Source: Candidatus Kaiserbacteria bacterium
GTDB lineage: Bacteria; Patescibacteriota; Minisyncoccia; Phycocordibacterales; UBA2100
Reading direction: 5' to 3'
NCBI GenBank assembly: GCA_016217925.1
Contig: JACRFK010000003.1
Span: 207,656-271,655, forward strand
Length of the DNA stretch: 64,000 nt
The first letter of the stretch is position 1, and every line of letters starts with the position of its first letter. Below, one piece after another: positions 783 through 52,377 of this stretch. The notes under the pieces were generated by a model. It was not told the origin of the DNA, ran no database searches, and saw only the letters and a program-made list of their open reading frames with translations. Made by a program: the position numbers and the translations under genes.

Positions 783-1831
783 ATATCAATGAGTGCAAGC
801 TCCAGCGGCAAATACGGCACGGCTGCATATGCCATCTGCTGATACGCTTCAAGCAACGCCTTTAGGGTATCTGAATTCACACCCGGTTCCTTGGCAAGTT
901 CCTGGGCGAGAGCGAGGTCGGCTTCGGTCAATTCTTGTGCGAAGGATTTCGCTAGGTCGGGCGCATACCGAAGCAAAAGGACCGCGCGCAGACGGTGGAT
1001 GAGTAGCTTCGCGAGCGTGCGCGGGTCCATGTTGTCCTCGACGGTCTTTGCAACGACCGCGAGGCCTGCGGCGGCATTTTTCTTTGCGACGGCGGTAAGT
1101 AGCTGTCGGACGATTTCACCGCGCGGAGCGCCGGAGACGGCTTCCACTTCCGCCACCTCGATTTTTTTGTTACCGGAAACGGCAAGGACTTTTTGCAAAA
1201 TTGAAAGGGAGTCGCGGAACGAGCCTTCAGCGAGAAGTGCGATGAGCTCCGCCGCTGAACGTTCGAGTGTGTATCCCTCCTTCTTGGCGATATCGGCGAC
1301 GGTCTCGGCGAGCATTGCGCGCGTCGGCTGCTTGAATGCGTAAACTTCGCAGCGCGATTGTATGGTCTCCGGTACGCGGTCGCGGTCGGTCGTCGCGAGG
1401 ACAAATATCGCGTGCGATGGCGGTTCTTCCAAAGTCTTCAGAAATGCGTTCCACGCCTCTTTCGTGAGCATGTGCGCCTCGTCGATGATGTAAAACTTGT
1501 ACGGCGACTCGAACGGCATCGCGTAAACCCCTTCGCGCAAGAGTCGGATATCATCTATTCCCCGATTGGATGCGGCGTCTATTTCGTAAAGGTCTTTGTC
1601 GGAGACTCCGAGCTCGCGCGCGAGGATGCGCGCGACCGAAGTCTTACCCGTCCCCCGCCCGCCTGCAAAGAGGTACGCGTGCGCTACCTTCTTGTTCTTT
1701 ATCGCCTTTTCAAGCACGTCCACGACATGCGCCTGCCCCCGCACATCCTTAAATGTCGCCGGCCGGTAGGTGCGGTAAAGCGTCGCGTGCCGTGCTTCTT
1801 TCTTCACCCCGTTAGAAGCTTTGCCTATCAT
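767..1831 (-). CDS. dnaX: DNA polymerase III subunit gamma/tau (short form)
   Basis: 354 aa; Walker A GGRGTGKTS, DEAH-like IIDEAHML, clamp-loader AAA+ architecture. Confidence 0.85.
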   Translation of the reverse strand: MIGKASNGVKKEARHATLYRTYRPATFKDVRGQAHVVDVLEKAIKNKKVAHAYLFAGGRGTGKTSVARILARELGVSDKDLYEIDAASNRGIDDIRLLREGVYAMPFESPYKFYIIDEAHMLTKEAWNAFLKTLEEPPSHAIFVLATTDRDRVPETIQSRCEVYAFKQPTRAMLAETVADIAKKEGYTLERSAAELIALLAEGSFRDSLSILQKVLAVSGNKKIEVAEVEAVSGAPRGEIVRQLLTAVAKKNAAAGLAVVAKTVEDNMDPRTLAKLLIHRLRAVLLLRYAPDLAKSFAQELTEADLALAQELAKEPGVNSDTLKALLEAYQQMAYAAVPYLPLELALIDICGEK

Positions 1832-2055
1832 AGAAAAAAGTTACGCAGTGGGTAACGGAAAGATTGCGAACGTGTCTTTTGCTGGCTTCTAACGGGGTTC
1901 ATTCGGACAGTATACATAGAAGACTGCGTCTTATGTAGCACCTTCGCTCGCAAATCATATTAACCTGCGGTTCATGCGATATTGCTCGCTAGGCGCTATA
2001 AAAAAAGTCGGCCGGCGGAACCGCATAGAGTTGCATTCCGTCGGCCGTACTGTCC

Positions 2056-7780: not shown

Positions 7781-8145
7781 TGTTGCAAAGCCAGTAAAAT
7801 CAATGTATAAAGCAGGCCGCTCTGTGTTGTTGTTGTGTAGGCGTACACCGCGTTCCCCAAACGACACCGAGGGAGATGTCCCGTGTCACGACGAAGAATT
7901 GATTGGTATGAACTTGGTACAGCGCGGAAGAAAACGGCCGCGATACGATGCGTCATGCAGAGACTTCGCAAGAACAAAAAGCGCGTGACGGGGGATGCCG
8001 TCACCGCCCGCTTCAAAAACGTATCGCGTGGTGGCGTGATCACGCATTGCTGGCGTTACGGTCCTCGACTTCCAAAGGCGCGCTCGAGTGCGGGCTCACG
8101 CAAGTGGCCGCGTCCGCTGACGCGAACGCATTGGCGATGAGCAAG

Positions 8146-8175
8146 ATGCCCGGCGCGAAAGCGCCGGGCCATTTT
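8146..8175 (+). terminator. rho-independent terminator
   Basis: GCCCGGCGCGAAAGCGCCGGGC followed by CATTTTT. Confidence 0.55.
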
Positions 8176-8224
8176 TATCTGCACCATTTGACATATGGTA
8201 CTCTTCTGGAGTATGACTACCCGC

Positions 8225-8329
8225 CATGAATCCCGCCCTTTCAGCGCGATATTATTTCTGCGAAATACTGATACTGTTCGATATGTCATCTTGCGTACCA
8301 ATCGTTATTAGCGTAGAAAGGGCGGGATG
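8225..8329 (+). promoter_or_regulatory. long-range inverted repeat whose 3' arm ends at the topA start codon
   Basis: CATGAATCCCGCCCTTTC (8225..8242) pairs with GAAAGGGCGGGAT (8316..8328) immediately before ATG 8327. The same 13-18-nt motif recurs at 31865 and 48297. Confidence 0.4.
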
Positions 8330-23039: not shown

Positions 23040-24257
23040 CTAGCCGATCAGCACTTTCTCGAGGATATCGAGCGTCTTCTTGATACCCTGTTCGGCGGTA
23101 TCGCGGCCGAGGGAAAAACGCAGGGTGTTTTTGGCCCGCCATTCGGGACCGCCGAGCGCCGCGACGACATGCGAGTCCGTTTCCCCCTCGCGACACGCGC
23201 TTTTTGTAGAAAGAGCAACGCCGAAGTGGTCGAGCTGAAGTGCAAGGTACTCCCCGCTCTTGTCGCCGGGCACTGATATGTTGAGCATGTGCGGAAGCGC
23301 GTGCCTGAGGTCGCCATTTACGATAATGCCTGGAATGCGGGCGACGATTTCGCGCGCAAAATCGTCGCGCAATTTCCGCAAGCGCTTCGTCTCTTTACCG
23401 CGCTCCGAAGTGAAGACATCGAACGCCGCTGCAAAGCCCGCAGCAAGAGCGGGGTCTTCTGTGCCCGGCCGCAATCCGCGCTCCTGTCCGCCCCCGTACA
23501 TGACGGGCGATGCATGGGCGCGATTGCTGAGGTGGAGAGCGCCCACGCCCCGCGGGCCGTACAACTTGCCGGAGCCGAGACTGAACAGGTCAACGCCGAG
23601 CGAATTGACCTGCGGAGAGAGGTAGAGCGGTGCTTGACCCGCGTCGCTGTGGAAAAGGACGGTCGTCTTATTATCTTTTTCGTACCGGTGGAGTGCGTGC
23701 GCGATATTTGAAAGTGGCTGCACTGTACCGATCTCGTTATTGCCCCACCCGACGGAAACGAACACGGTCTCCGGTCGCAGTGCTTTCACCACGTGTTCCG
23801 CCGCTACTATGCCTTTTGAGTCCGGCTCCACATGCGTGACAGCTCCTCCCATACGCTCGACTTCGGCGAAACATTCGAGCACCGACGAGTGCTCGATAGA
23901 ACTTACGATCCAGTGCGTACCTTCGAGTGAGCGACGATGTATCTCAAGCGCCCGTGCAGTCCCGACGATGGCAATGGTATTCGACTCGGTGAGCCCTGAG
24001 GTGAAGACGAGTTCCCGCGCCTTACAGCCTAGGTGCTTCCCTATGCGTTCACGAGACGAGGTGAGCAGCCGCTTGGCGACAACTCCCTCTTCGTGCAGAG
24101 CGCCGGGATTCGCAAAAATACCCATCGCCTCGCTGAGGGCCTGTGCGGCCTTTTGATGCACGGGTGTCGCGCTTGCATAGTCGAGATAGATGCGCCGCGT
24201 ACCGAAAAGACTCATGTGAGAAGTGTACGCGGCGAATTTACAATTTCCAAGGCTCAA
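23040..24257 (-). CDS. cysteine desulfurase (class V aminotransferase, NifS/IscS-like)
   Basis: PLP-lysine region SLGSGKLYGPRGVGALH, SSIEHSSVLE, catalytic Cys STKSACREG. Confidence 0.8.
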   Translation of the reverse strand: MSLGNCKFAAYTSHMSLFGTRRIYLDYASATPVHQKAAQALSEAMGIFANPGALHEEGVVAKRLLTSSRERIGKHLGCKARELVFTSGLTESNTIAIVGTARALEIHRRSLEGTHWIVSSIEHSSVLECFAEVERMGGAVTHVEPDSKGIVAAEHVVKALRPETVFVSVGWGNNEIGTVQPLSNIAHALHRYEKDNKTTVLFHSDAGQAPLYLSPQVNSLGVDLFSLGSGKLYGPRGVGALHLSNRAHASPVMYGGGQERGLRPGTEDPALAAGFAAAFDVFTSERGKETKRLRKLRDDFAREIVARIPGIIVNGDLRHALPHMLNISVPGDKSGEYLALQLDHFGVALSTKSACREGETDSHVVAALGGPEWRAKNTLRFSLGRDTAEQGIKKTLDILEKVLIG

Positions 24258-24298
24258 TTTTCAATCAATTTCCAATGTCCCAGTTGTGCAAAATTGAA

Positions 24299-24328
24299 AA
24301 TTGCGAATTGAAAATTTCGGCGTATACT
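24299..24328 (+). promoter_or_regulatory. candidate sigma70-type promoter for infB within an AT-rich (AATTGAAAATT)n motif region
   Basis: TTGCGA, 16 nt, TATACT about 30 nt upstream of infB ATG; repeated CAATTTCCAAT/GAAAATT motifs at 24241..24317. Confidence 0.3.
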
Positions 24329-30516: not shown

Positions 30517-31859
30517 AAGCCCAAAATATGTGCCATCTCCTGGTCCGCGCGCTGTACAGCCTCGGTGACAAGCAGTGTACCGCTCGTCGTATTCTCAATC
30601 ATAGCTTGGAAAAGTGCGCTTGTCTTATCGGGGTCGGGATCGAGCCAGGAGTGCGCAAGAATAGCTTGTTTGTTGAAGAGATCGTCGTTGCCCTGTGCCG
30701 GCTTGTTGAGGATGTCACGGCGTGCGCTTGGTATTCCGAGCGCAGTTGAGAGAGGACCGGCCGTATCGGCAGAGACGAGAAGGAATGCGACGGTAATTGC
30801 CCCTCCGGGATTCTTGCCCGCGCGAGAAGCCGCTAGAGCCCAAACGCGCCCCGTGTTAAGCGTGTTCTTTGCTGCGCGTACCTGCGGCATTGGCGCCACG
30901 GCATAATTGAGATTCGGGTTCATGCGTGTGATGCGCGGAGCCTCGCTTGCGTAGCCGATATAAAGAGCCACGTCGCCGGAGGCAAATGCTTTTTGGGATT
31001 CGGGAAGCGAGCGGCTCCAAGAGTAGTCGTTCTTCGACGGGTCGGAGAATTCCGTATAGAAACGCAGGGCGGAGGCCGTTGATTGTATCGACGTCGCCCC
31101 GACGCGCGGCGCGAGCGCCGGTGTGAGACGTCCGGCGTTATCAAATGCCGTAATATCACCACCAGCTTGAAGTATGAGAGTCGCGAGAATATCTTTTGCG
31201 TTCGTCACATTCCTGTATTCGCCGAGTGCGATCGCCGATTTCACGATCGAGCCACTCTCGTTGCGCTCACTCGTCTTTTGCGCAATACCGAAAAGCTCAT
31301 CCCAATACTTCGGCGGTTGTGCGTATCCGGCAGAGGCGAGCATGTCTTTGTTCCAGTAGAGGACGAGTGGATCGGCGAGAAGCGGCACAGCTATCACACC
31401 GTTTTGTGCGAGAAATGGTCTTGCCGCCTCGACGAACGTACTCTCAAATTGAGTCCGGGATAAAGCGGAGAACGGGATCACTGATACTTTACCCGCATTT
31501 TTTAGGGCGTAATCCTGTCGCATTAAGAAAAGGTCGGGGCCAGCCCCGCTTGCAAGCGCGTTGATGAGATCCGCCTCGAAAGTCACTGGATCTTTTTGCT
31601 CGTAGGTTACCTGACTCAACTGTGCGTTGTTCTCGGCGGCTTGGCGAAGGACGGTAGCGAAGGCATTCTGATCGAGTGTGCCCCATATACGTACCGGCCC
31701 GATCGCACTGCCTTGCCCGCCACCGATAGCAAGCGCGAATATGAGCACGCCGGAAATGGCGAGACCGCCAAAAACGACGAGTAGTGTTATCTGGAACATC
31801 GAAAGTTTTTTCATCCCGCTCTTTTTATGTTTGTAAATATTGTTTTCATAGTACTCCAA
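30513..31859 (-). CDS. extracellular solute-binding protein, ABC family 1 (orphan, membrane-anchored)
   Basis: 448 aa; N-terminal TM, periplasmic-binding-protein type 2 fold sequence; no adjacent permease or ATPase. Confidence 0.65.
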   Translation of the reverse strand: MEYYENNIYKHKKSGMKKLSMFQITLLVVFGGLAISGVLIFALAIGGGQGSAIGPVRIWGTLDQNAFATVLRQAAENNAQLSQVTYEQKDPVTFEADLINALASGAGPDLFLMRQDYALKNAGKVSVIPFSALSRTQFESTFVEAARPFLAQNGVIAVPLLADPLVLYWNKDMLASAGYAQPPKYWDELFGIAQKTSERNESGSIVKSAIALGEYRNVTNAKDILATLILQAGGDITAFDNAGRLTPALAPRVGATSIQSTASALRFYTEFSDPSKNDYSWSRSLPESQKAFASGDVALYIGYASEAPRITRMNPNLNYAVAPMPQVRAAKNTLNTGRVWALAASRAGKNPGGAITVAFLLVSADTAGPLSTALGIPSARRDILNKPAQGNDDLFNKQAILAHSWLDPDPDKTSALFQAMIENTTSGTLLVTEAVQRADQEMAHILGL

Positions 31860-31864
31860 ATTTT

Positions 31865-31882
31865 GAAAGGGCGGGATTCATG
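31865..31882 (+). repeat. copy of GAAAGGGCGGGATTCATG motif (M1)
   Basis: Identical 18-mer to the reverse complement of 8225..8242; intergenic between two minus-strand genes. Confidence 0.5.
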
Positions 31883-40460: not shown

Positions 40461-40550
40461 TAATTTTCAATTTACAAGTAACAATTTTCAAAAAACGCCG
40501 CATTACGAGCTCCTCATTTGAAAATTGGAAATTGGAAATTGGAAATTTCG
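40461..40550. promoter_or_regulatory. divergent pth/lepB promoter region with (GGAAATT)3 and AATTTTCAA repeats
   Basis: TTTGAAAATTGGAAATTGGAAATTGGAAATTTCG; TAATTTTCAATTTACAAGTAACAATTTTCAAAAAA; related motifs upstream of infB. Confidence 0.35.
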
Positions 40551-40693
40551 CGATGGAACATCGCGCACGCTTGGTGTCAACGCCGCTCACACAGTAGAAT
40601 ATCGCACATGTCTGATCCCGTGGTGCCAGTTGACCCATCACGGACCCCGTTAGAGATTCATAGAGAACTTGTTGTTGGTGATTTAAATAGTAT

Positions 40694-41305
40694 ATGAGTG
40701 AAAACTCACCAAGTGAGGCGCAAAACGTCCCCGTCTCTAACGGGGCGGGTACCCAAAAAGGTTCTCAGCGCTCACTATTCATTTACACGGTCGTTGCGCT
40801 CGGCCTCGCGCTCTTCATCCGCTTTTTCGTCGCTGCGCCGTACGTCGTTTCAGGTGCTTCCATGGAACCAAACTTCGAAGATTGGAATTATTTGATCGTT
40901 GACCGTGTGTCGTATGTCTTTGGGGCCCCCGTTCGCGGAGACGTCATCGTTCTCGACCTTCCGCAGAACGAAAGCCGCGCGCTCATCAAGCGAGTTATCG
41001 GCCTCCCCGGTGAGACCGTCGTACTCTCCGGCCAAAAAGTGACGATTATCAACGAAGAGCACCCGCAAGGCTTCACACTCGAGGAGCCGTACCTCGATGC
41101 AGCCAACCTCACGGGCAGCAACGAGCTTACGATGGAACTTTCCGGAGACGAATATTTTGTACTCGGCGACAACCGCCGCGTTTCCGCAGATTCACGCATC
41201 TGGGGCTCGCTTCCGCGCAAGGACATCGTCGGCCGCGTGTTTATAAGACTCTACCCTCTCGATCACATCGGTATTTTTCCCGCTGAAGCACGCTACACGG
41301 AATAA
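40694..41305 (+). CDS. lepB: signal peptidase I
   Basis: TM, catalytic GASMEPN (SM(E/Q)P box), GDVIVL, GDNRRVSADSR. Confidence 0.85.
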   Translation: MSENSPSEAQNVPVSNGAGTQKGSQRSLFIYTVVALGLALFIRFFVAAPYVVSGASMEPNFEDWNYLIVDRVSYVFGAPVRGDVIVLDLPQNESRALIKRVIGLPGETVVLSGQKVTIINEEHPQGFTLEEPYLDAANLTGSNELTMELSGDEYFVLGDNRRVSADSRIWGSLPRKDIVGRVFIRLYPLDHIGIFPAEARYTE

Positions 41306-42601: not shown

Positions 42602-42707
42602 ATAAATCAAACTGCAAACTCCAAAGTGCAAAATGATAATGATGCACTTTTTGGTTTTTGGATTTTGACTTTTGCATATGCAGATGGTAGACTCGTCGCC
42701 ACATGAG

Positions 42708-42823
42708 TCCCGTTAGAAGTAGCGGACGCATGTGCCTAGATTAACCAAGAAAACCAACCTTATTACACTTTATCGAGTATGGTGCGAGACGTCCTACGTT
42801 TCCGCGTCCTACTTCTAACGGGA
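42708..42823 (+). promoter_or_regulatory. long-range inverted repeat ending at the rpsU start codon
   Basis: TCCCGTTAGAAGTAGCGGACGC (42708..42729) pairs with GCGTCCTACTTCTAACGGGA (42804..42823) directly before ATG 42823. Confidence 0.4.
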
Positions 42824-43155
42824 TGAGCATAAACGCAGAAGTATCCAAAAGCGGCAATGAAAGCACGCTTTCTACCATTCGCAAATTCTCCCGCCGCGTA
42901 CAGGGTACGGGCTTGGTACGCACCGTCCGCGGAGGACGCTACTACACACGCACCGCATCCAAGATAGTGAAGAAGAAGCGCGCGCTCAAGCTCATTAAGC
43001 GCCGCGCTGACTACAAGCAGCTCATCAAGGAGGGTAAGGTCATCGAAGCTGCGCCCCGCCACGGACAAGGAGGCCGCCCATCGCACAATCGCCCCGGCCA
43101 GACTGAACAATCGTCCGCTCCGAAGCCTGCCGAGAGTACCCCTGTCGCAAGATAA
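42823..43155 (+). CDS. rpsU: 30S ribosomal protein S21-like
   Basis: GNESTLSTIRKFSRRVQGTGLVRTVRGGRYYTRTASKIVKKKRALK resembles the S21 (E..ALRRFKR..G.L.EVR.R.Y.KPS.KRK) pattern; basic; extended C-terminus. Confidence 0.5.
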   Translation: MSINAEVSKSGNESTLSTIRKFSRRVQGTGLVRTVRGGRYYTRTASKIVKKKRALKLIKRRADYKQLIKEGKVIEAAPRHGQGGRPSHNRPGQTEQSSAPKPAESTPVAR

Positions 43156-43194
43156 CGACTTCGTAAGTCGTTATAACGATTTGCGAAGTCGTTA
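43154..43194. repeat. tandem 20-nt palindromes R1 (AACGACTTCGTAAGTCGTTA / AACGATTTGCGAAGTCGTTA)
   Basis: Perfect 8-bp-arm palindromes spanning rpsU stop to ybeY start; further copies at 44838 and 45011. Confidence 0.6.
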
Positions 43195-44755: not shown

Positions 44756-44837
44756 AAAGACACGGACTCGCCAACGCGGCGAGCCCGCATGTTCAGACGA
44801 TAATCAAGAGCAAGATTATCGCTGTAACCAGAAAATT

Positions 44838-45060
44838 AACGACTTCGTAAGTCGTTATCATAAGTCGTTCTCATGCAATGAGATGTCATCTCATTGCAAA
44901 TCTAATATTCTTATATTTCGTCTATGGTGAGAAATAGGAACATCGAAGATATTCCCAGTTGGTGACGACAGCTTACGAATGGGAATATTGCTTTTCGCAT
45001 TAAAAAGATTAAAGACTTCGTAAGTCGTTATTCCCTACGCAATGAGATGTCACCTCATTG
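44838..45060. repeat. repeat-dense intergenic block: two R1-R2 palindrome units about 170 nt apart
   Basis: R1 AACGACTTCGTAAGTCGTTA (44838, 45011) and R2 GCAATGAGATGTCATCTCATTGC (44875, 45040); followed by a long hairpin at 45078..45126. Confidence 0.6.
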
Positions 45061-45158
45061 GGTCTCATAAAAGAAGAACCGCCTCGCCGAGAGAAGATGT
45101 CCCGACGAGGTCGGTGGTTCTTCTTCGACGTAGCGGTTCGTTAGTCCAAGAGGCTCGC

Positions 45159-45317
45159 TTACATTTTCTGCAGCGTGCGAGCTACCCAGACCATCGCGGC
45201 TAACGTCACAACGACAAAAACGACCAGTTGGATTTGGGGCCGTATTTCAGGCGCAATGGCCCAGAGCACGGCGACCATAATCACAATGGCGGTAAGCGGG
45301 AGCAGCAAACTTTTCAT
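45159..45317 (-). CDS. hypothetical small membrane protein
   Basis: MKSLLLPLTAIVIMVAVLWAIAPE...VVFVVVTLAAMVWV; 52 aa, 2 TM. Confidence 0.3.
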   Translation of the reverse strand: MKSLLLPLTAIVIMVAVLWAIAPEIRPQIQLVVFVVVTLAAMVWVARTLQKM

Positions 45318-45430
45318 TTTCTTCCCCTGGTTTCGTAGCGTTGACGATTCGTGACCAAGTTGTATGATACCACCCCATATTGTGTTTGTCAAGCTTGCCC
45401 TTTTCGGTAAAGTGCTATTATGGCCTCACT

Positions 45431-47565: not shown

Positions 47566-48212
47566 GAGGTTATCCGCTTCAAGACCGAAAACGCGCGGTC
47601 GATATCCGCATTGTCGAAAATAATACTGAGTTCCGTTCGCACCGACATTATTTCGACGAAGCTGATGCTCTCGGTCGCGAGCGCTTTCAATATCGGATAG
47701 TACATGCCCGGCACGGTGAGGCTCTCCTCGGGCATACGCATCGTTATCGCCGACAGATTTCCGATTTTCTTTGTGTGTTTTTCACTTGCGAGCGCCGCCG
47801 TTACTTCGGGCTCGAATTCCGAGCTTACGATGATGAGCGACTCGTGGAGCCCGCGCGAAAAATTGAGAAATGTGTCTTTGCGTTTCGATGCGCTTTTGGA
47901 CAGCGTCTCCAATACCCGCGGAAGCGCCTCGGAATTCGCACAGACAAATTCGACGAGGTTGGAACGTACTGTCAGGTCGTTCATCTTTTTCACAAGCTTC
48001 GCGCTGTACAGATTTTGCGCAGGCTTTTTGCGCATGCGATGCAGCGCCATTGCGATAGCGGCCTCGGATACTTTCTCGTAGAGGCGTTTCTCGACATCGG
48101 GACGTATCTTGCGCGCGATTTGCGCATTATTGGCGATACCCTCGGCCATCGCCTCGGCGAGGAATGGCGAGCGTTGGATTATCTCCTCGACGGCCTGGCT
48201 TATCGTTCTCAT
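47562..48212 (-). CDS. hypothetical protein with C-terminal ACT-like domain
   Basis: Start at internal MRTISQ; C-terminus LTVPGMYYPILKALATESISFVEIMSVRTELSIIFDNADIDRAF has ACT-like beta-alpha-beta pattern. Confidence 0.4.
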   Translation of the reverse strand: MRTISQAVEEIIQRSPFLAEAMAEGIANNAQIARKIRPDVEKRLYEKVSEAAIAMALHRMRKKPAQNLYSAKLVKKMNDLTVRSNLVEFVCANSEALPRVLETLSKSASKRKDTFLNFSRGLHESLIIVSSEFEPEVTAALASEKHTKKIGNLSAITMRMPEESLTVPGMYYPILKALATESISFVEIMSVRTELSIIFDNADIDRAFSVLKRITS

Positions 48213-48296
48213 CCCGCTCTTTCTAGACTGATAATCAAGGGTAGACGAGCATAGGGAGAGAAGACCCGCAGGGGACTGACAAGCCGGACGTGCGAT

Positions 48297-48315
48297 GAAA
48301 GGGCGGGACTCATTG
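48297..48315 (+). repeat. variant copy of GAAAGGGCGGGA(C/T)TCAT motif (M1)
   Basis: GAAAGGGCGGGACTCATTG; intergenic. Confidence 0.45.
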
Positions 48316-52280: not shown

Positions 52281-52335
52281 TGGAGAACATACTACCATTC
52301 CGCACAAAAATATACAGCAAACCGCTATCGTGAGA

Positions 52336-52360
52336 CCCAATGAGATGACATCTCATTGGG
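52336..52360. repeat. R2 palindrome copy (intergenic)
   Basis: CCCAATGAGATGACATCTCATTGGG; supplies a spurious in-frame ATG to the pyrF ORF. Confidence 0.65.
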
Positions 52361-52377
52361 TCGTCCCCCCTCAAGAT

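Follow-up and report, generated by a model that had tools for sequence, protein, structure and literature searches.

The 64-kb window analysed here, meaning the whole stretch of DNA, comes from a Candidatus Kaiserbacteria genome (CPR), and its TopA matches a Kaiserbacteria protein at 100% identity. Six short elements were found in it, which fall into two families according to their terminal arms, TCCCGCCCTTTC in family A and YCCCGTTAGAAG in family B, with YCCCG...CGGGR ends common to both (Table 1). The elements measure 62-116 nt, and their sole open reading frames, of 11-34 codons, provide no coding capacity for a transposase. Their terminal inverted repeats span 12-15 bp, perfect or with one mismatch, and just outside the 5' arm lies ATGAA or ATGAG, which is found again at the 3' arm as the start codon of the host gene plus two bases. 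The 13-mer motif of these elements occurs nine times when up to two mismatches are allowed (1.9 expected; none of 100 shuffles reached nine), and CATGARTCCCG occurs eight times, where 2.3 occurrences are expected.

An earlier sequence-only reading had placed inverted repeats before topA (CATGAATCCCGCCCTTTC at 8225-8242 and GAAAGGGCGGGAT at 8316-8328, meeting ATG 8327-8329) and before rpsU (with the 3' arm abutting ATG 42823), and both pairs of arms lie exactly where it had them. Its two further copies of the motif, at 31865-31882 and 48297-48315, were located correctly but are not the isolated intergenic motifs that they were taken for; each belongs, as 5' arm, to a further element of this design on the minus strand, and the corresponding 3' arms (31814-31825 and 48212-48223) abut ATG 31814 and ATG 48212 on the minus strand, and the arm at 31.8 kb overlaps the stop codon of the methyltransferase gene upstream. 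Two more elements of the rpsU type, which that reading had not included, lie before dnaX and inside the signal-peptidase gene, and the direct repeat around the arms had likewise escaped it.

Table 1. Elements of families A and B and associated features in the window, in order of position
Feature	Position	Strand	Details
Element B2, family B, before dnaX	1805..1902	-	arms CCCCGTTAGAAGC 1897-1885 and GCTTCTAACGGGG 1819-1807
Host topA promoter	8188..8218	+	-35 TTGACA 8188-8193, 18-nt spacer, -10 TATGACT 8212-8218
Left target copy ATGAA	8226..8230	+	former leaderless topA start; now mini-ORF start
A1 mini-ORF	8226..8330	+	34 codons, MNPALSARYYFCEILILFDMSSCVPIVISVERAG; stop TGA 8328-8330 overlaps topA ATG 8327-8329
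Element A1, family A	8231..8327	+	97 nt; without counterpart in relatives
A1 5' arm	8231-8242	+	TCCCGCCCTTTC
A1 conserved 3' module, candidate outward promoter	8291..8326	+	TTGCGT 8291-8296, 17 nt, TAGAAA 8314-8319, 7 nt, ATG
A1 3' arm	8316-8327	+	GAAAGGGCGGGA; its last base, A, doubles as first base of the topA ATG
topA, type IA DNA topoisomerase, host gene of A1	8327..10504	+	Pfam Toprim, Topoisom_bac, Zn_ribbon_Top1
Element A2, family A, short form	31812..31881	-	5' arm 31876-31865; 3' arm AAAAGAGCGGGA 31825-31814
Element B3, family B, inside signal-peptidase gene after codon 12	40645..40745	+	flanks CGGA, CGGG
Host rpsU promoter	42665..42693	+	TTGACT 42665-42670, 17 nt, TAGACT 42688-42693
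Element B1, family B, before rpsU	42703..42826	+	arms 42708-42729 and 42804-42823
Element A3, family A	48209..48313	-	5' arm 48308-48297; 3' arm GAAAGAGCGGGA 48223-48212

Most genes of this Kaiserbacteria genome are leaderless, with a -10 box 6-8 nt before the ATG, and Shine-Dalgarno sites are scarce. In the window, TAnnnT precedes the first ATG by 5-9 nt in 23 of 55 genes, as opposed to 3 of 251 internal ATGs, while SD-like motifs were found in just four of the 55. A search of the literature for leaderless translation in CPR, for start-codon MITEs and for MITEs in Patescibacteria returned no relevant paper.

At topA, the host promoter ends 7-8 nt from the left ATG at 8226 and is conserved in the relatives L001, L002 and L004. 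In L002/L003 (93% amino acid identity) it is followed by 7 nt and then ATGAAG, with the element absent, and there is likewise no element at topA in L001 and L004; ATGAA is single in these empty sites and double in the window. Within the 3' module of A1, out-of-frame stops stand close before the ATG, and a consensus promoter scan of positions 8000-8500 reported no promoter. An exact look-up of the A1 mini-peptide found no called gene in the public collection. The left ATGAA of A2 (31881-31877) contains the TGA (31880-31878) with which the upstream methyltransferase gene ends, its host start (ATG 31814-31812) belongs to a minus-strand gene for a solute-binding protein, and its mini-ORF is truncated to 11 codons. 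The left ATGAG of A3 (48313-48309) is preceded by a -10 box, TATATT, and 7 nt, and its host ATG (48212-48210) begins a protein of 216 aa without a Pfam match; here the mini-ORF, MSPALS...LERAG, has 34 codons and ends in TGA at 48211-48209.

In family B, the promoter of rpsU ends 9 nt before the left ATG of B1 at 42703, and its -35 box, TTGACT, is common to the relative L203. ATGAG is duplicated at 42703-42707 and 42823-42827, the arms form 15 perfect pairs followed by a 2-nt bulge and 5-6 further pairs, and two short ORFs (42703-42744 and 42779-42826) are present, the TGA of the second overlapping the rpsU ATG. In the relatives L203 and L204, rpsU is leaderless, with a -10 box, 8 nt and ATG, and has no B1. 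Upstream of B2, a -10 box, TATACT (1914-1909), and 6 nt precede the left ATGAA (1902-1898), and the right copy is GTGAA (1807-1803), the end pair being C-G in place of T-A, with GTG as the regenerated start. The uORF of B2 has 24 codons, and its TGA (1830-1828) overlaps an internal ATG at 1831 that is in frame with dnaX. B3 lies downstream of the leaderless start of its host gene, ATG 40608, which has its -10 box, TAGAAT, at 40595-40600; the frame from this ATG stops at TGA 40695-40697, which overlaps an internal ATG (40694) where the signal-peptidase frame is taken up again, and the N-terminus of the signal peptidase of relatives is unbroken (MxDPVMQE...YTVVALGLALFIRFF). The internal ATGA junctions of both B2 and B3 are in frame with the host gene. 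The peptides of family B differ from those of family A and are often truncated.

RNA folding, which the sequence-only reading had proposed as a check, gave terminal stems in the predictions for the topA copy (-36 kcal/mol, z -2.4), the rpsU copy (-44.6 kcal/mol, z -4.2) and the copy at 31.8 kb (z -3.3). A stable stem 4 nt past a 5'-terminal AUG is an expected obstacle to leaderless initiation, unless translation is co-transcriptional.

The structure of the ends argues for insertion with duplication of the target. The duplicated (A)TGAN measures 4-5 bp, and its fifth base changes in step on the two sides of the element (ATGAA/ATGAA, ATGAG/ATGAG, ATGAT/ATGAT); at other sites the flanking repeats are CTAAA, TACAA, TTGA and TAAA. 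A new start codon thus stands at the 3' end of the element, its first base given by the terminal pair of the arms (T-A for ATG, C-G for GTG). Elements lie exactly on ATGA starts of two kinds, leaderless ones and stop/start overlaps within operons: the left ATG has a -10 box 5-10 nt upstream in 13 of 23 copies, the left TGA closes an ORF of 100 codons or more in 10 of 23, and only three of the 23 have neither. The relatives whose marker proteins are 89-94% identical have empty topA and rpsU sites, in which the same promoter directly precedes the ATG and the start codon is single, and no YCCCG-armed element was found in ~66 kb of their loci, as opposed to six in the 64-kb window. In many CPR contigs copies precede host genes that are unrelated housekeeping genes, at least 20 different ones outside the window. 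These empty orthologous sites, duplicated flanks and unrelated downstream genes support one suggestion of the sequence-only reading, that of a mobile structured motif. An insertion of the IS200/IS605 type, 3' of a fixed target, was considered and rejected, since the pentamer varies with the host site and resembles a duplication.

Family A was assembled as a set of 22 distinct copies from the window and from genome and metagenome loci. Among the listed matches of a contig scan with the exact motif TGARTCCCGCCCTTTC, most were chance matches in unrelated phyla, and the genuine ones were L010, L014, L034, L064 and L078; viral contigs scanned for families A and B gave no match, and a generic scan of the window and relatives for direct repeats combined with inverted repeats found no further family beyond chance level. 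A search of ~620 kb for distant arm pairs enclosing a transposase found none, nor any full-length IS with these ends. Between family-A copies, conservation is limited to the arms and the 3' 40 nt, and the 5' interiors are unrelated; no near-identical copies were found at different loci, which gives recent transposition no support, and such near-unrelated interiors within one genome, which are unusual for a MITE family, require either old insertions or fast turnover of the interior. At many loci with the same arms there is no flanking duplication, and the stem also appears in a lineage of cobalamin riboswitches, for which reasons the arm sequence alone is not diagnostic. The two families appear to have multiplied in this Candidatus Kaiserbacteria lineage as well as in other CPR bacteria, and the main role of the arms would be that of DNA ends for mobilisation, with the RNA stem as a by-product.

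The interior of family A points to translation. The length is a multiple of three in 20 of the 22 distinct copies (60, 63, 93, 96), and a mini-ORF of 33-34 codons, MNPALS...ERAG, begins at the left ATG and closes with a TGA that shares bases with the host ATG. Of 20 copies, 17 keep this frame open; with shuffled interiors (2000 trials) the mean was 5.2 and no trial exceeded 12, and each of the other frames is open in fewer copies (5 and 4 of the 20). The TGA lies inside ATGA in 22/22 family-A copies. The interior of the mini-peptide is not conserved, and its RNA shows no structure beyond that of shuffled controls (mean z +0.33).

These features suggest that translation is central to the elements, in a way different from occlusion of the start, namely by means of a mini-ORF that passes through the element and ends on the host ATG. 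In the mechanism that we infer, transcription, or an upstream ribosome, would still reach the left copy, where a ribosome would start at the 5'-terminal AUG and read the ~33-codon mini-ORF through the element, then stop at the UGA, which forms an AUGA overlap with the host AUG, and reinitiate there. Because of this termination and reinitiation at AUGA, the insertion would be translationally transparent, and the relay would keep the host gene translated. Family B may operate the same relay via its internal ATGA junction, in which case the 3' arm would add a short stretch to the N-terminus of the host protein. Some copies break the rule, with early stops in A2, B1, L119 and L193 and a decayed left ATG in L142, L190 and L179, and because the hosts of rule-breaking copies include ribosomal protein genes, the relay is not the sole route of expression. 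As a joint explanation, small (~60-120 bp), non-autonomous, MITE-like insertions with a regenerated ATG and a putative mini-ORF relay serve best, and we regard this as probable.

The conserved part of the family-A interior is a 3' block of ~40 nt with the form TTGCAN-N17-TAGAAA-N7-ATG, in which 20 of 22 copies have a stop at -13; this out-of-frame stop would close a second reading frame directly before the start. The block may add an outward promoter able to remake a leaderless host mRNA. It is a possible, if doubtful, reading that this promoter is the essential part of a portable cassette and the mini-ORF secondary, which would be compatible with the relay. The conserved block is exactly as long as a promoter and ends at the ATG, its spacing fits the leaderless geometry of the host, and TTGC is kept at the nucleotide level, the preceding codons varying but all ending in T. 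In addition, the orthologous copies L119/L193, in both of which the mini-ORF is broken, are identical at 28 of 37 positions in the 3' interior, as opposed to 10 of 36 in the 5' interior, and L142/L170 have no left ATG and yet lie upstream of rpmJ. However, TAGAAA lacks, by eye, the final T of the clearest -10 boxes in the window and is not preceded by a TG extension, only about half of the copies carry the -35-like TTGCA, and family B has no comparable motif. External promoters are, moreover, intact before the left ATG in 13 of 23 copies, and the multiple-of-three lengths and the open frame are left unexplained. A sigma-54 reading of TTGCA was also tried and rejected, there being no GG element at the proper distance.

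The sequence-only reading had favoured a gene-specific cis-regulatory RNA, whose stem would occlude the ribosome-binding region or the start codon of topA and rpsU in a shared translational or attenuation control. The predicted stems do take in the first two bases of the start codon, and the motif is statistically over-represented, but stems are not conserved at the orthologous topA (L001, L002, L004) or rpsU (L203, L204) loci, where the promoters are kept, an outcome that this reading had itself named as counting against it, there is scarcely any Shine-Dalgarno use to occlude, with four SD genes in 55, the host genes are functionally unrelated, the interior shows no excess of structure, and an Rfam gathering scan of the window returned 10 tRNAs only and no matching family; this control is largely refuted and must be rated very improbable. 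A mimic of the 16S 3' tail by the 5' arm, or a Shine-Dalgarno role of the 3' arm, was separately rejected as main function, the spacing being ~4 nt too short and SD hardly used. A small protein with a function of its own, or a leader peptide with a regulatory role (MNPALS...C...IIS[IV]ERAG), to whose coding the inverted repeat would be incidental, could account for the frame that stays open and for the invariant N- and C-terminal residues; these residues are, however, exactly those encoded by the arms, the interior of ~20 residues is not conserved, TTGC is conserved as nucleotides and not as amino acids, the peptide has no called gene in the public collection, and the family-B peptides are different and often truncated, which leaves this reading with hardly any likelihood. 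Same-arm insertions inside 16S genes (L121, L145/L178, L188) and a 23S gene (L131), which must be removed or tolerated, and the stems of A1 and B1, which are extended to ~21 bp, would agree with IVS-like processing, in which RNase III or a similar enzyme excises the hairpin and the mRNA then starts at or just before the host AUG; we consider it quite unlikely, as most copies have just 12 bp with a conserved C.A mismatch, and the open frame, multiple-of-three lengths and orientation bias are unexplained by it. Mobilisation may be due not to a DDE transposase but to a homing-type GIY-YIG nuclease of a longer same-arm relative, of which the short copies would be cargo-less derivatives. A 300-nt same-arm insertion in the 16S gene of L188 (3325-3624) encodes an 85-aa GIY-YIG protein (Pfam E = 3.5e-14), and in L162 a GIY-YIG gene adjoins a hairpin copy; these are two associations only in bacteria where small GIY-YIG genes are common, target duplications of 4-5 bp are not normal for homing, and the L188 copy is without a flanking repeat, so that we hold this source of mobility to be unlikely.

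Returning to the relay, a broader proposal is put forward tentatively, at somewhat less than even chances: that these are selfish palindromic elements specialised for leaderless genomes, which duplicate the start codon, carry a translational relay and maybe a spare promoter and, in the same hairpin-bounded form, also invade rRNA genes, where a GIY-YIG nuclease can be their cargo. If this is correct, the start codons of essential genes (topA, ribosomal proteins, dnaX) would be open to them even in ultra-compact CPR genomes, at no lethal cost to the host, a harmless-insertion strategy that would be the translation-level analogue of introns and inteins, and mobile DNA could persist despite almost no non-coding space, since insertion at a start codon would restore the signals that it disrupts. 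Testable predictions on 70S leaderless initiation and termination-reinitiation would follow for an uncultivated phylum. For annotation, the elements would give rise to false long 5' UTRs and uncalled mini-ORFs and would split genes, as in the signal-peptidase gene here, which is annotated from the internal ATG; they would also be strain-variable markers, and leaderless expression systems might draw on the 3' module as a compact candidate cassette for promotion and restart. A Kaiserbacteria genome dominated by leaderless genes would have been documented from sequence alone, and such dominance would inform how CPR bacteria with reduced ribosomes initiate translation.

By analogy, the closest known systems appear to be the mycobacterial MIRUs, the Rickettsia RPEs and the Neisseria Correia/REP2 elements, from each of which the present elements differ. 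The mycobacterial phylum, in which MIRUs are found, has many leaderless mRNAs, a likeness to Kaiserbacteria. As described in PMC3184786, MIRUs (Supply et al., 1997) are like the present elements in having 40-100 bp and imperfect inverted ends, in the tetranucleotide direct repeats at filled sites, with empty sites in relatives, and in their position between co-transcribed genes, where the ends of small ORFs overlap the stop and start of the neighbours. According to the same account, MIRUs are tandem minisatellites inside operons, whereas copies of families A and B are single and have a long-range terminal stem, and the resemblance would be functional only (PMC3184786). The present elements, in another phylum, also differ in lying mostly on promoter-proximal leaderless starts and in regenerating the start codon from the duplication.

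Another example is the RPE of Rickettsia (Ogata et al., 2000), which the review PMC10969869 presents as a palindromic repeat of ~100-150 bp that has frame-compatible lengths, as here, and survives inside the genes of a reduced genome by keeping translation going. RPEs are there described as read in frame and part of the host protein, as opposed to family A, which has a separate frame and a stop/start handover (PMC10969869). Residues would be added to the host protein only by family B (B2, B3) and by the 34-nt Uhrbacteria copy L064. The Correia, REP2 and Borrelia upstream repeats share with the present elements a small size, inverted ends, co-transcription and a place immediately 5' of genes; repeats of the Correia/REP2 type can supply outward promoters, and Correia stems are substrates of RNase III (PMC2649163, PMC3184786). 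Correia elements, however, duplicate TA and provide SD-dependent contexts, while here the start codon itself is duplicated, an apparent adaptation to leaderless genes, and the promoter is a candidate only (PMC2649163, PMC3184786).

Bacterial rRNA IVSs are likewise stem-bounded insertions in 16S and 23S genes, comparable to the same-arm insertions in CPR rRNA genes, but they are defined by their excision from rRNA, whereas the elements described here lie in mRNA start regions. RPEs, too, occur in RNA genes. Finally, AUGA stop/start coupling and uORF-dependent expression resemble the proposed relay in that an upstream stop overlaps a downstream start, which implies termination-reinitiation; in the present elements, in contrast, the upstream frame is neither gene nor sensor but makes up the body of the insertion, and it starts at the host's own duplicated leaderless start.

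The two inverted repeats that the sequence-only reading had placed before topA and rpsU are present as claimed: upstream of topA, CATGAATCCCGCCCTTTC is complementary to GAAAGGGCGGGAT, the rpsU arms pair likewise, and in both cases RNA folding predicts that the stem forms. The two further occurrences of the 5' arm, noted as intergenic recurrences, are genuine copies but are not isolated motifs, being the 5' arms of two more elements on the minus strand whose 3' arms likewise adjoin start codons (ATG 31814 and ATG 48212). The 13-mer motif is enriched in the window, with nine matches at two or fewer mismatches versus 1.9 expected, a count reached in 0 of 100 shuffles. Together with two additional rpsU-type copies, this makes six elements in the window, which fall into two families, with arms TCCCGCCCTTTC/GAAAGRGCGGGA in family A (A1-A3) and YCCCGTTAGAAG/CTTCTAACGGGR in family B (B1-B3). 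A direct repeat had been overlooked: the ATGAA or ATGAG just outside the 5' arm returns at the 3' arm, where it comprises the start codon and the next two bases, giving a left ATG and a host ATG. The original observation is confirmed and extended.

Coordinates of the elements and associated features (window positions unless a locus, L, of a relative or a metagenome or genome collection is named)
Feature	Position	Strand	Remark
A1 arms (topA)	8225-8242; 8316-8328		3' arm ends within ATG 8327
A1 mini-ORF	8226-8330	+	full 34-codon frame
A2		-	truncated 62-nt form
A3 mini-ORF	48313-48209	-	full 34-codon frame
B1 arms (rpsU)	42708-42729; 42804-42823		3' arm adjoins ATG 42823
B2	1805-1902	-	rpsU-type; before dnaX
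B3	40645-40745		rpsU-type; inside signal-peptidase gene
S26 signal-peptidase gene	40608-41305		divided by B3
dprA-topA spacer	cf. 7781-8187		about 550 nt; ORF 7883-8140, strong terminator 8148-8169
Tandem 21-nt units	43153-43194		between rpsU stop TAA and ybeY ATG
Other third-family repeats	44837-44857; 45010-45030
ftsA-ftsZ spacer	44756-45430		about 675 nt
CAATGAGATGTCATCTCATTG, recurrence	52334-52362
GAAAATTG/CAATTTTC-like inverted repeats	24242-24316; 40462-40547		two divergent promoter regions
16S insertions	L121 2859-2955; L145 392-486; L178 8278-8372; L188 3325-3624
23S insertion	L131 1170-1263		5-bp CTAAA direct repeat
Region downstream of 16S	L188 5140-6072
GIY-YIG gene and hairpin	L162 about 2240-2618
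Palindromic element	L204 16303-16459		5-bp direct repeat CCGAA
Cobalamin riboswitch, same helix	L123, L129, L132, L133, L136-L139, L146, L149, L155, L158, L175, L177, L181, L183, L191, L198

The window TopA is 100% identical to the protein of a Candidatus Kaiserbacteria MAG, with hundreds of relatives at 80-94%, and relatives retain dprA-topA synteny with the same topA promoter (TTGACR-N18-TATSACT). In L002 and L003 (93% TopA identity), this promoter is followed by 7 nt and then ATGAAG, a leaderless topA without the element, which is also absent from the topA site of L001 and L004. In L203 and L204, rpsU has a -10 box, 8 nt and ATGTC(A/T)ATCAATGCAGAAG, again with no element, and about 66 kb of relatives' DNA contained zero such elements versus six in the 64-kb window. 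These empty sites identify the stems as lineage-specific insertions and not conserved regulators. The proposal of a shared translational or attenuation control is therefore rejected, since the stems are not conserved in relatives, an outcome that the sequence-only reading had itself named as refuting, while the alternative of a mobile structured motif gains support from the absence of the element at orthologous sites; that the elements are insertions at start codons is very probable. The S21 N-terminus, MSIN, is alike in the window (42823-42831), L203 (7945) and L204 (8042); the window encodes its Ser by AGC, which creates the duplicated target ATGAG, and the two relatives use TCA or TCT and have no TGA, so that only the window lineage possesses the rpsU insertion site. 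The dprA-topA spacer also varies, from 31-62 nt in L001 and L002 to about 400 nt, with an unrelated small ORF, in L004.

An exact-motif scan of species genomes gave mostly chance matches; the true copies among the matches listed lie before rplX in Kaiserbacteria UBA10103, in an Uhrbacteria MAG (whose copy is minimal, its loop measuring 11 nt), in one Omnitrophica-labelled contig and in two MAGs. A two-arm pattern search of a metagenome collection returned 84 loci, and about 17 distinct loci carry (A)TGAN on both flanks followed by a long ORF. Hosts elsewhere, named from N-terminal sequences (the Pfam check covered window genes only), are unrelated housekeeping genes: rplX, rpmI (three genomes), rpmJ, rpmE, fmt, map, ppa, pyrG, thyA, tpiA and a pyrF-like gene. 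Copies at start codons all face the same way with respect to the host gene. Left and right repeats co-vary at their fifth base (ATGAA, ATGAG, ATGAT), copies on other site types have 4-5 bp repeats (CTAAA, TACAA, TTGA, TAAA), and B3 is flanked by CGGA/CGGG; the flanking repeats behave as target-site duplications. Interiors are too diverged between copies to provide evidence of recent transposition, and no transposase partner was found between distant arm pairs in about 620 kb.

Leaderless genes predominate in this genome. In 23/55 genes a TAnnnT box ends 5-9 nt before the first in-frame ATG, versus 3/251 internal ATGs, and Shine-Dalgarno-like motifs precede 4/55 window genes. TATAAT-like boxes stand 6-8 nt before ATG across the window (23/55 genes by the strict test). 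A literature search found no paper on predominantly leaderless gene starts in Kaiserbacteria or CPR. In every element, it is the left repeat copy, and not the host start codon, that adjoins a promoter or the upstream gene's stop.

The 22 distinct family-A copies measure 34, 60, 62, 63, 93 (six copies) or 96 nt (twelve copies), a multiple of three in 20. In 17 of these 20, the frame from the left ATG is open through the whole element to a TGA inside the host ATGA, where shuffled interiors gave a mean of 5.2 and a maximum of 12 (2000 trials); of the two alternative frames, one is open in 5/20 copies and the other in 4/20. The product is MNPALS-x(about 20)-IIS[IV]ERAG, whose invariant residues coincide exactly with the ones that the two arms encode, the interior being unconserved and no more structured as RNA than shuffled sequence (mean z +0.33). 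The simplest reading would be that selection acts on ribosome transit rather than on the peptide. In such a relay, the ribosome would initiate on the former start codon, be carried through the element to the regenerated start, and reinitiate at the AUGA overlap; the former start would either form the 5' end of a leaderless mRNA or be reached via coupling from the upstream gene. The relay is somewhat favoured. Copies whose frame stops early or whose left ATG has decayed still precede ribosomal protein genes, and therefore it would not be the sole route to expression.

Apart from the arms, conservation in family A is confined to the final ~40 nt, which read a..TTGCa..(10-12 nt)..ATTATYAGYRTAGAAAGRGCGGG. 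Between the orthologous copies at the infC-rpmI junction in L119 and L193, identity is 20/40 at rpmI third codon positions, 10/36 (random) in the element's 5' interior and 28/37 in the 3' interior. Both copies have a mini-ORF interrupted at codon 8 and yet keep this 3' interior, so selection acts on the 3' block at the nucleotide level and independently of the peptide. The layout of the block (TTGCAN, 17 nt, TAGAAA, 7 nt, ATG) has exactly one promoter length and fits the host's leaderless promoters; given this length and geometry, an outward promoter may well lie here, with a probability about even or slightly below. The candidate -10, TAGAAA, lacks the final T seen by eye in the window's clearest -10 boxes, and a consensus promoter scanner (8000-8500) made no call for the A1 3' block. 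The block also places a second-frame stop at -13 in 20/22 copies, with an in-frame stop within 24 nt in 10/22; in L190, the IF3 frame enters the element and terminates at one of these stops.

Family B would follow the same logic, but with an internal junction. In B2, a 24-codon frame from ATG 1902 stops at a TGA overlapping ATG 1831, which shares the dnaX frame and extends the protein by MIGKASNG; with C-G replacing T-A as the terminal inverted-repeat pair of B2, the regenerated start becomes GTG. In B3, the conserved leaderless start ATG 40608 (-10 TAGAAT) opens a 29-codon frame whose TGA overlaps ATG 40694, from which the host frame is taken up again and leads back into the conserved ...YTVVALGLALFIRFF. 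The signal-peptidase gene is thereby divided into a 29-codon ORF and a 203-aa ORF overlapping at ATGA, and ORF lists or gene callers would begin it at the internal ATG 40694, missing the promoter-proximal start. B1 is less tidy: a 13-codon ORF is followed by another, the TGA of which overlaps the start codon of rpsU.

Arm sequence alone is not diagnostic of the element, because the closing stem in a lineage of cobalamin riboswitches (assignment to Rfam RF00174 confirmed for L123 and L146) is an identical 12-bp helix; many hairpins with family-A arms show no flanking repeats. CPR-like rRNA genes hold insertions with family-A arms at differing positions, and the 16S genes of L145 and L178 also contain a group I intron. 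The 300-nt 16S insertion of L188 encodes an 85-aa GIY-YIG nuclease between the arms, which is a lead for a mobilising activity and not evidence of one. The sequence downstream of this 16S gene carries a fragment of a group II intron, a gene for a LAGLIDADG endonuclease and three minimal hairpins, of which two have a TTCG loop (TCCCGCCCTTTC-TTCG-GAAAGAGCGGGA). In L162, a GIY-YIG gene stands beside a hairpin copy interrupting an apparent RNase P RNA, which scores below the Rfam threshold.

Other repeats were also observed. In a third palindromic family, two tandem 21-nt units, TAACGACTTCGTAAGTCGTTA then TAACGATTTGCGAAGTCGTTA, each 7 codons long and beginning TAA, exactly occupy the rpsU-ybeY gap, a junction that in L203 and L204 is a plain TAATG stop/start overlap; the array looks like another insertion duplicating a stop/start junction. 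The unusually long ftsA-ftsZ spacer has a ~170-nt direct repeat made up of a TAACGACTTCG... hairpin and a second palindrome, CAATGAGATGTCATCTCATTG. The GAAAATTG/CAATTTTC-like inverted repeats (e.g. TTTGAAAATTGGAAATTGGAAATTGGAAATT) may be operator-like sites. The L204 palindromic element has 12-nt arms (CGGTACCCC.../...GGGGTACCG).

By size, inverted ends, target duplication, copy number and empty sites the elements resemble MITEs, while their interiors are not similar among copies; a literature search found no published description of such start-codon-duplicating elements. Closest among known systems is the mycobacterial MIRU, a 40-100 bp unit whose inverted ends are imperfect and whose direct repeats measure 4 bp, which has empty sites in relatives and whose ORFs overlap the stop and start of neighbouring genes (PMC3184786). 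Rickettsia RPEs are palindromic repeats tolerated within genes via in-frame reading (PMC10969869), and the Neisseria Correia and REP2 elements, which are RNase III substrates, supply promoters, RBS and ATG upstream of genes (PMC2649163, PMC3184786). Unlike all of these, the window elements duplicate the start codon itself, reside in a CPR host, and would depend on leaderless initiation and a putative out-of-frame mini-ORF relay.
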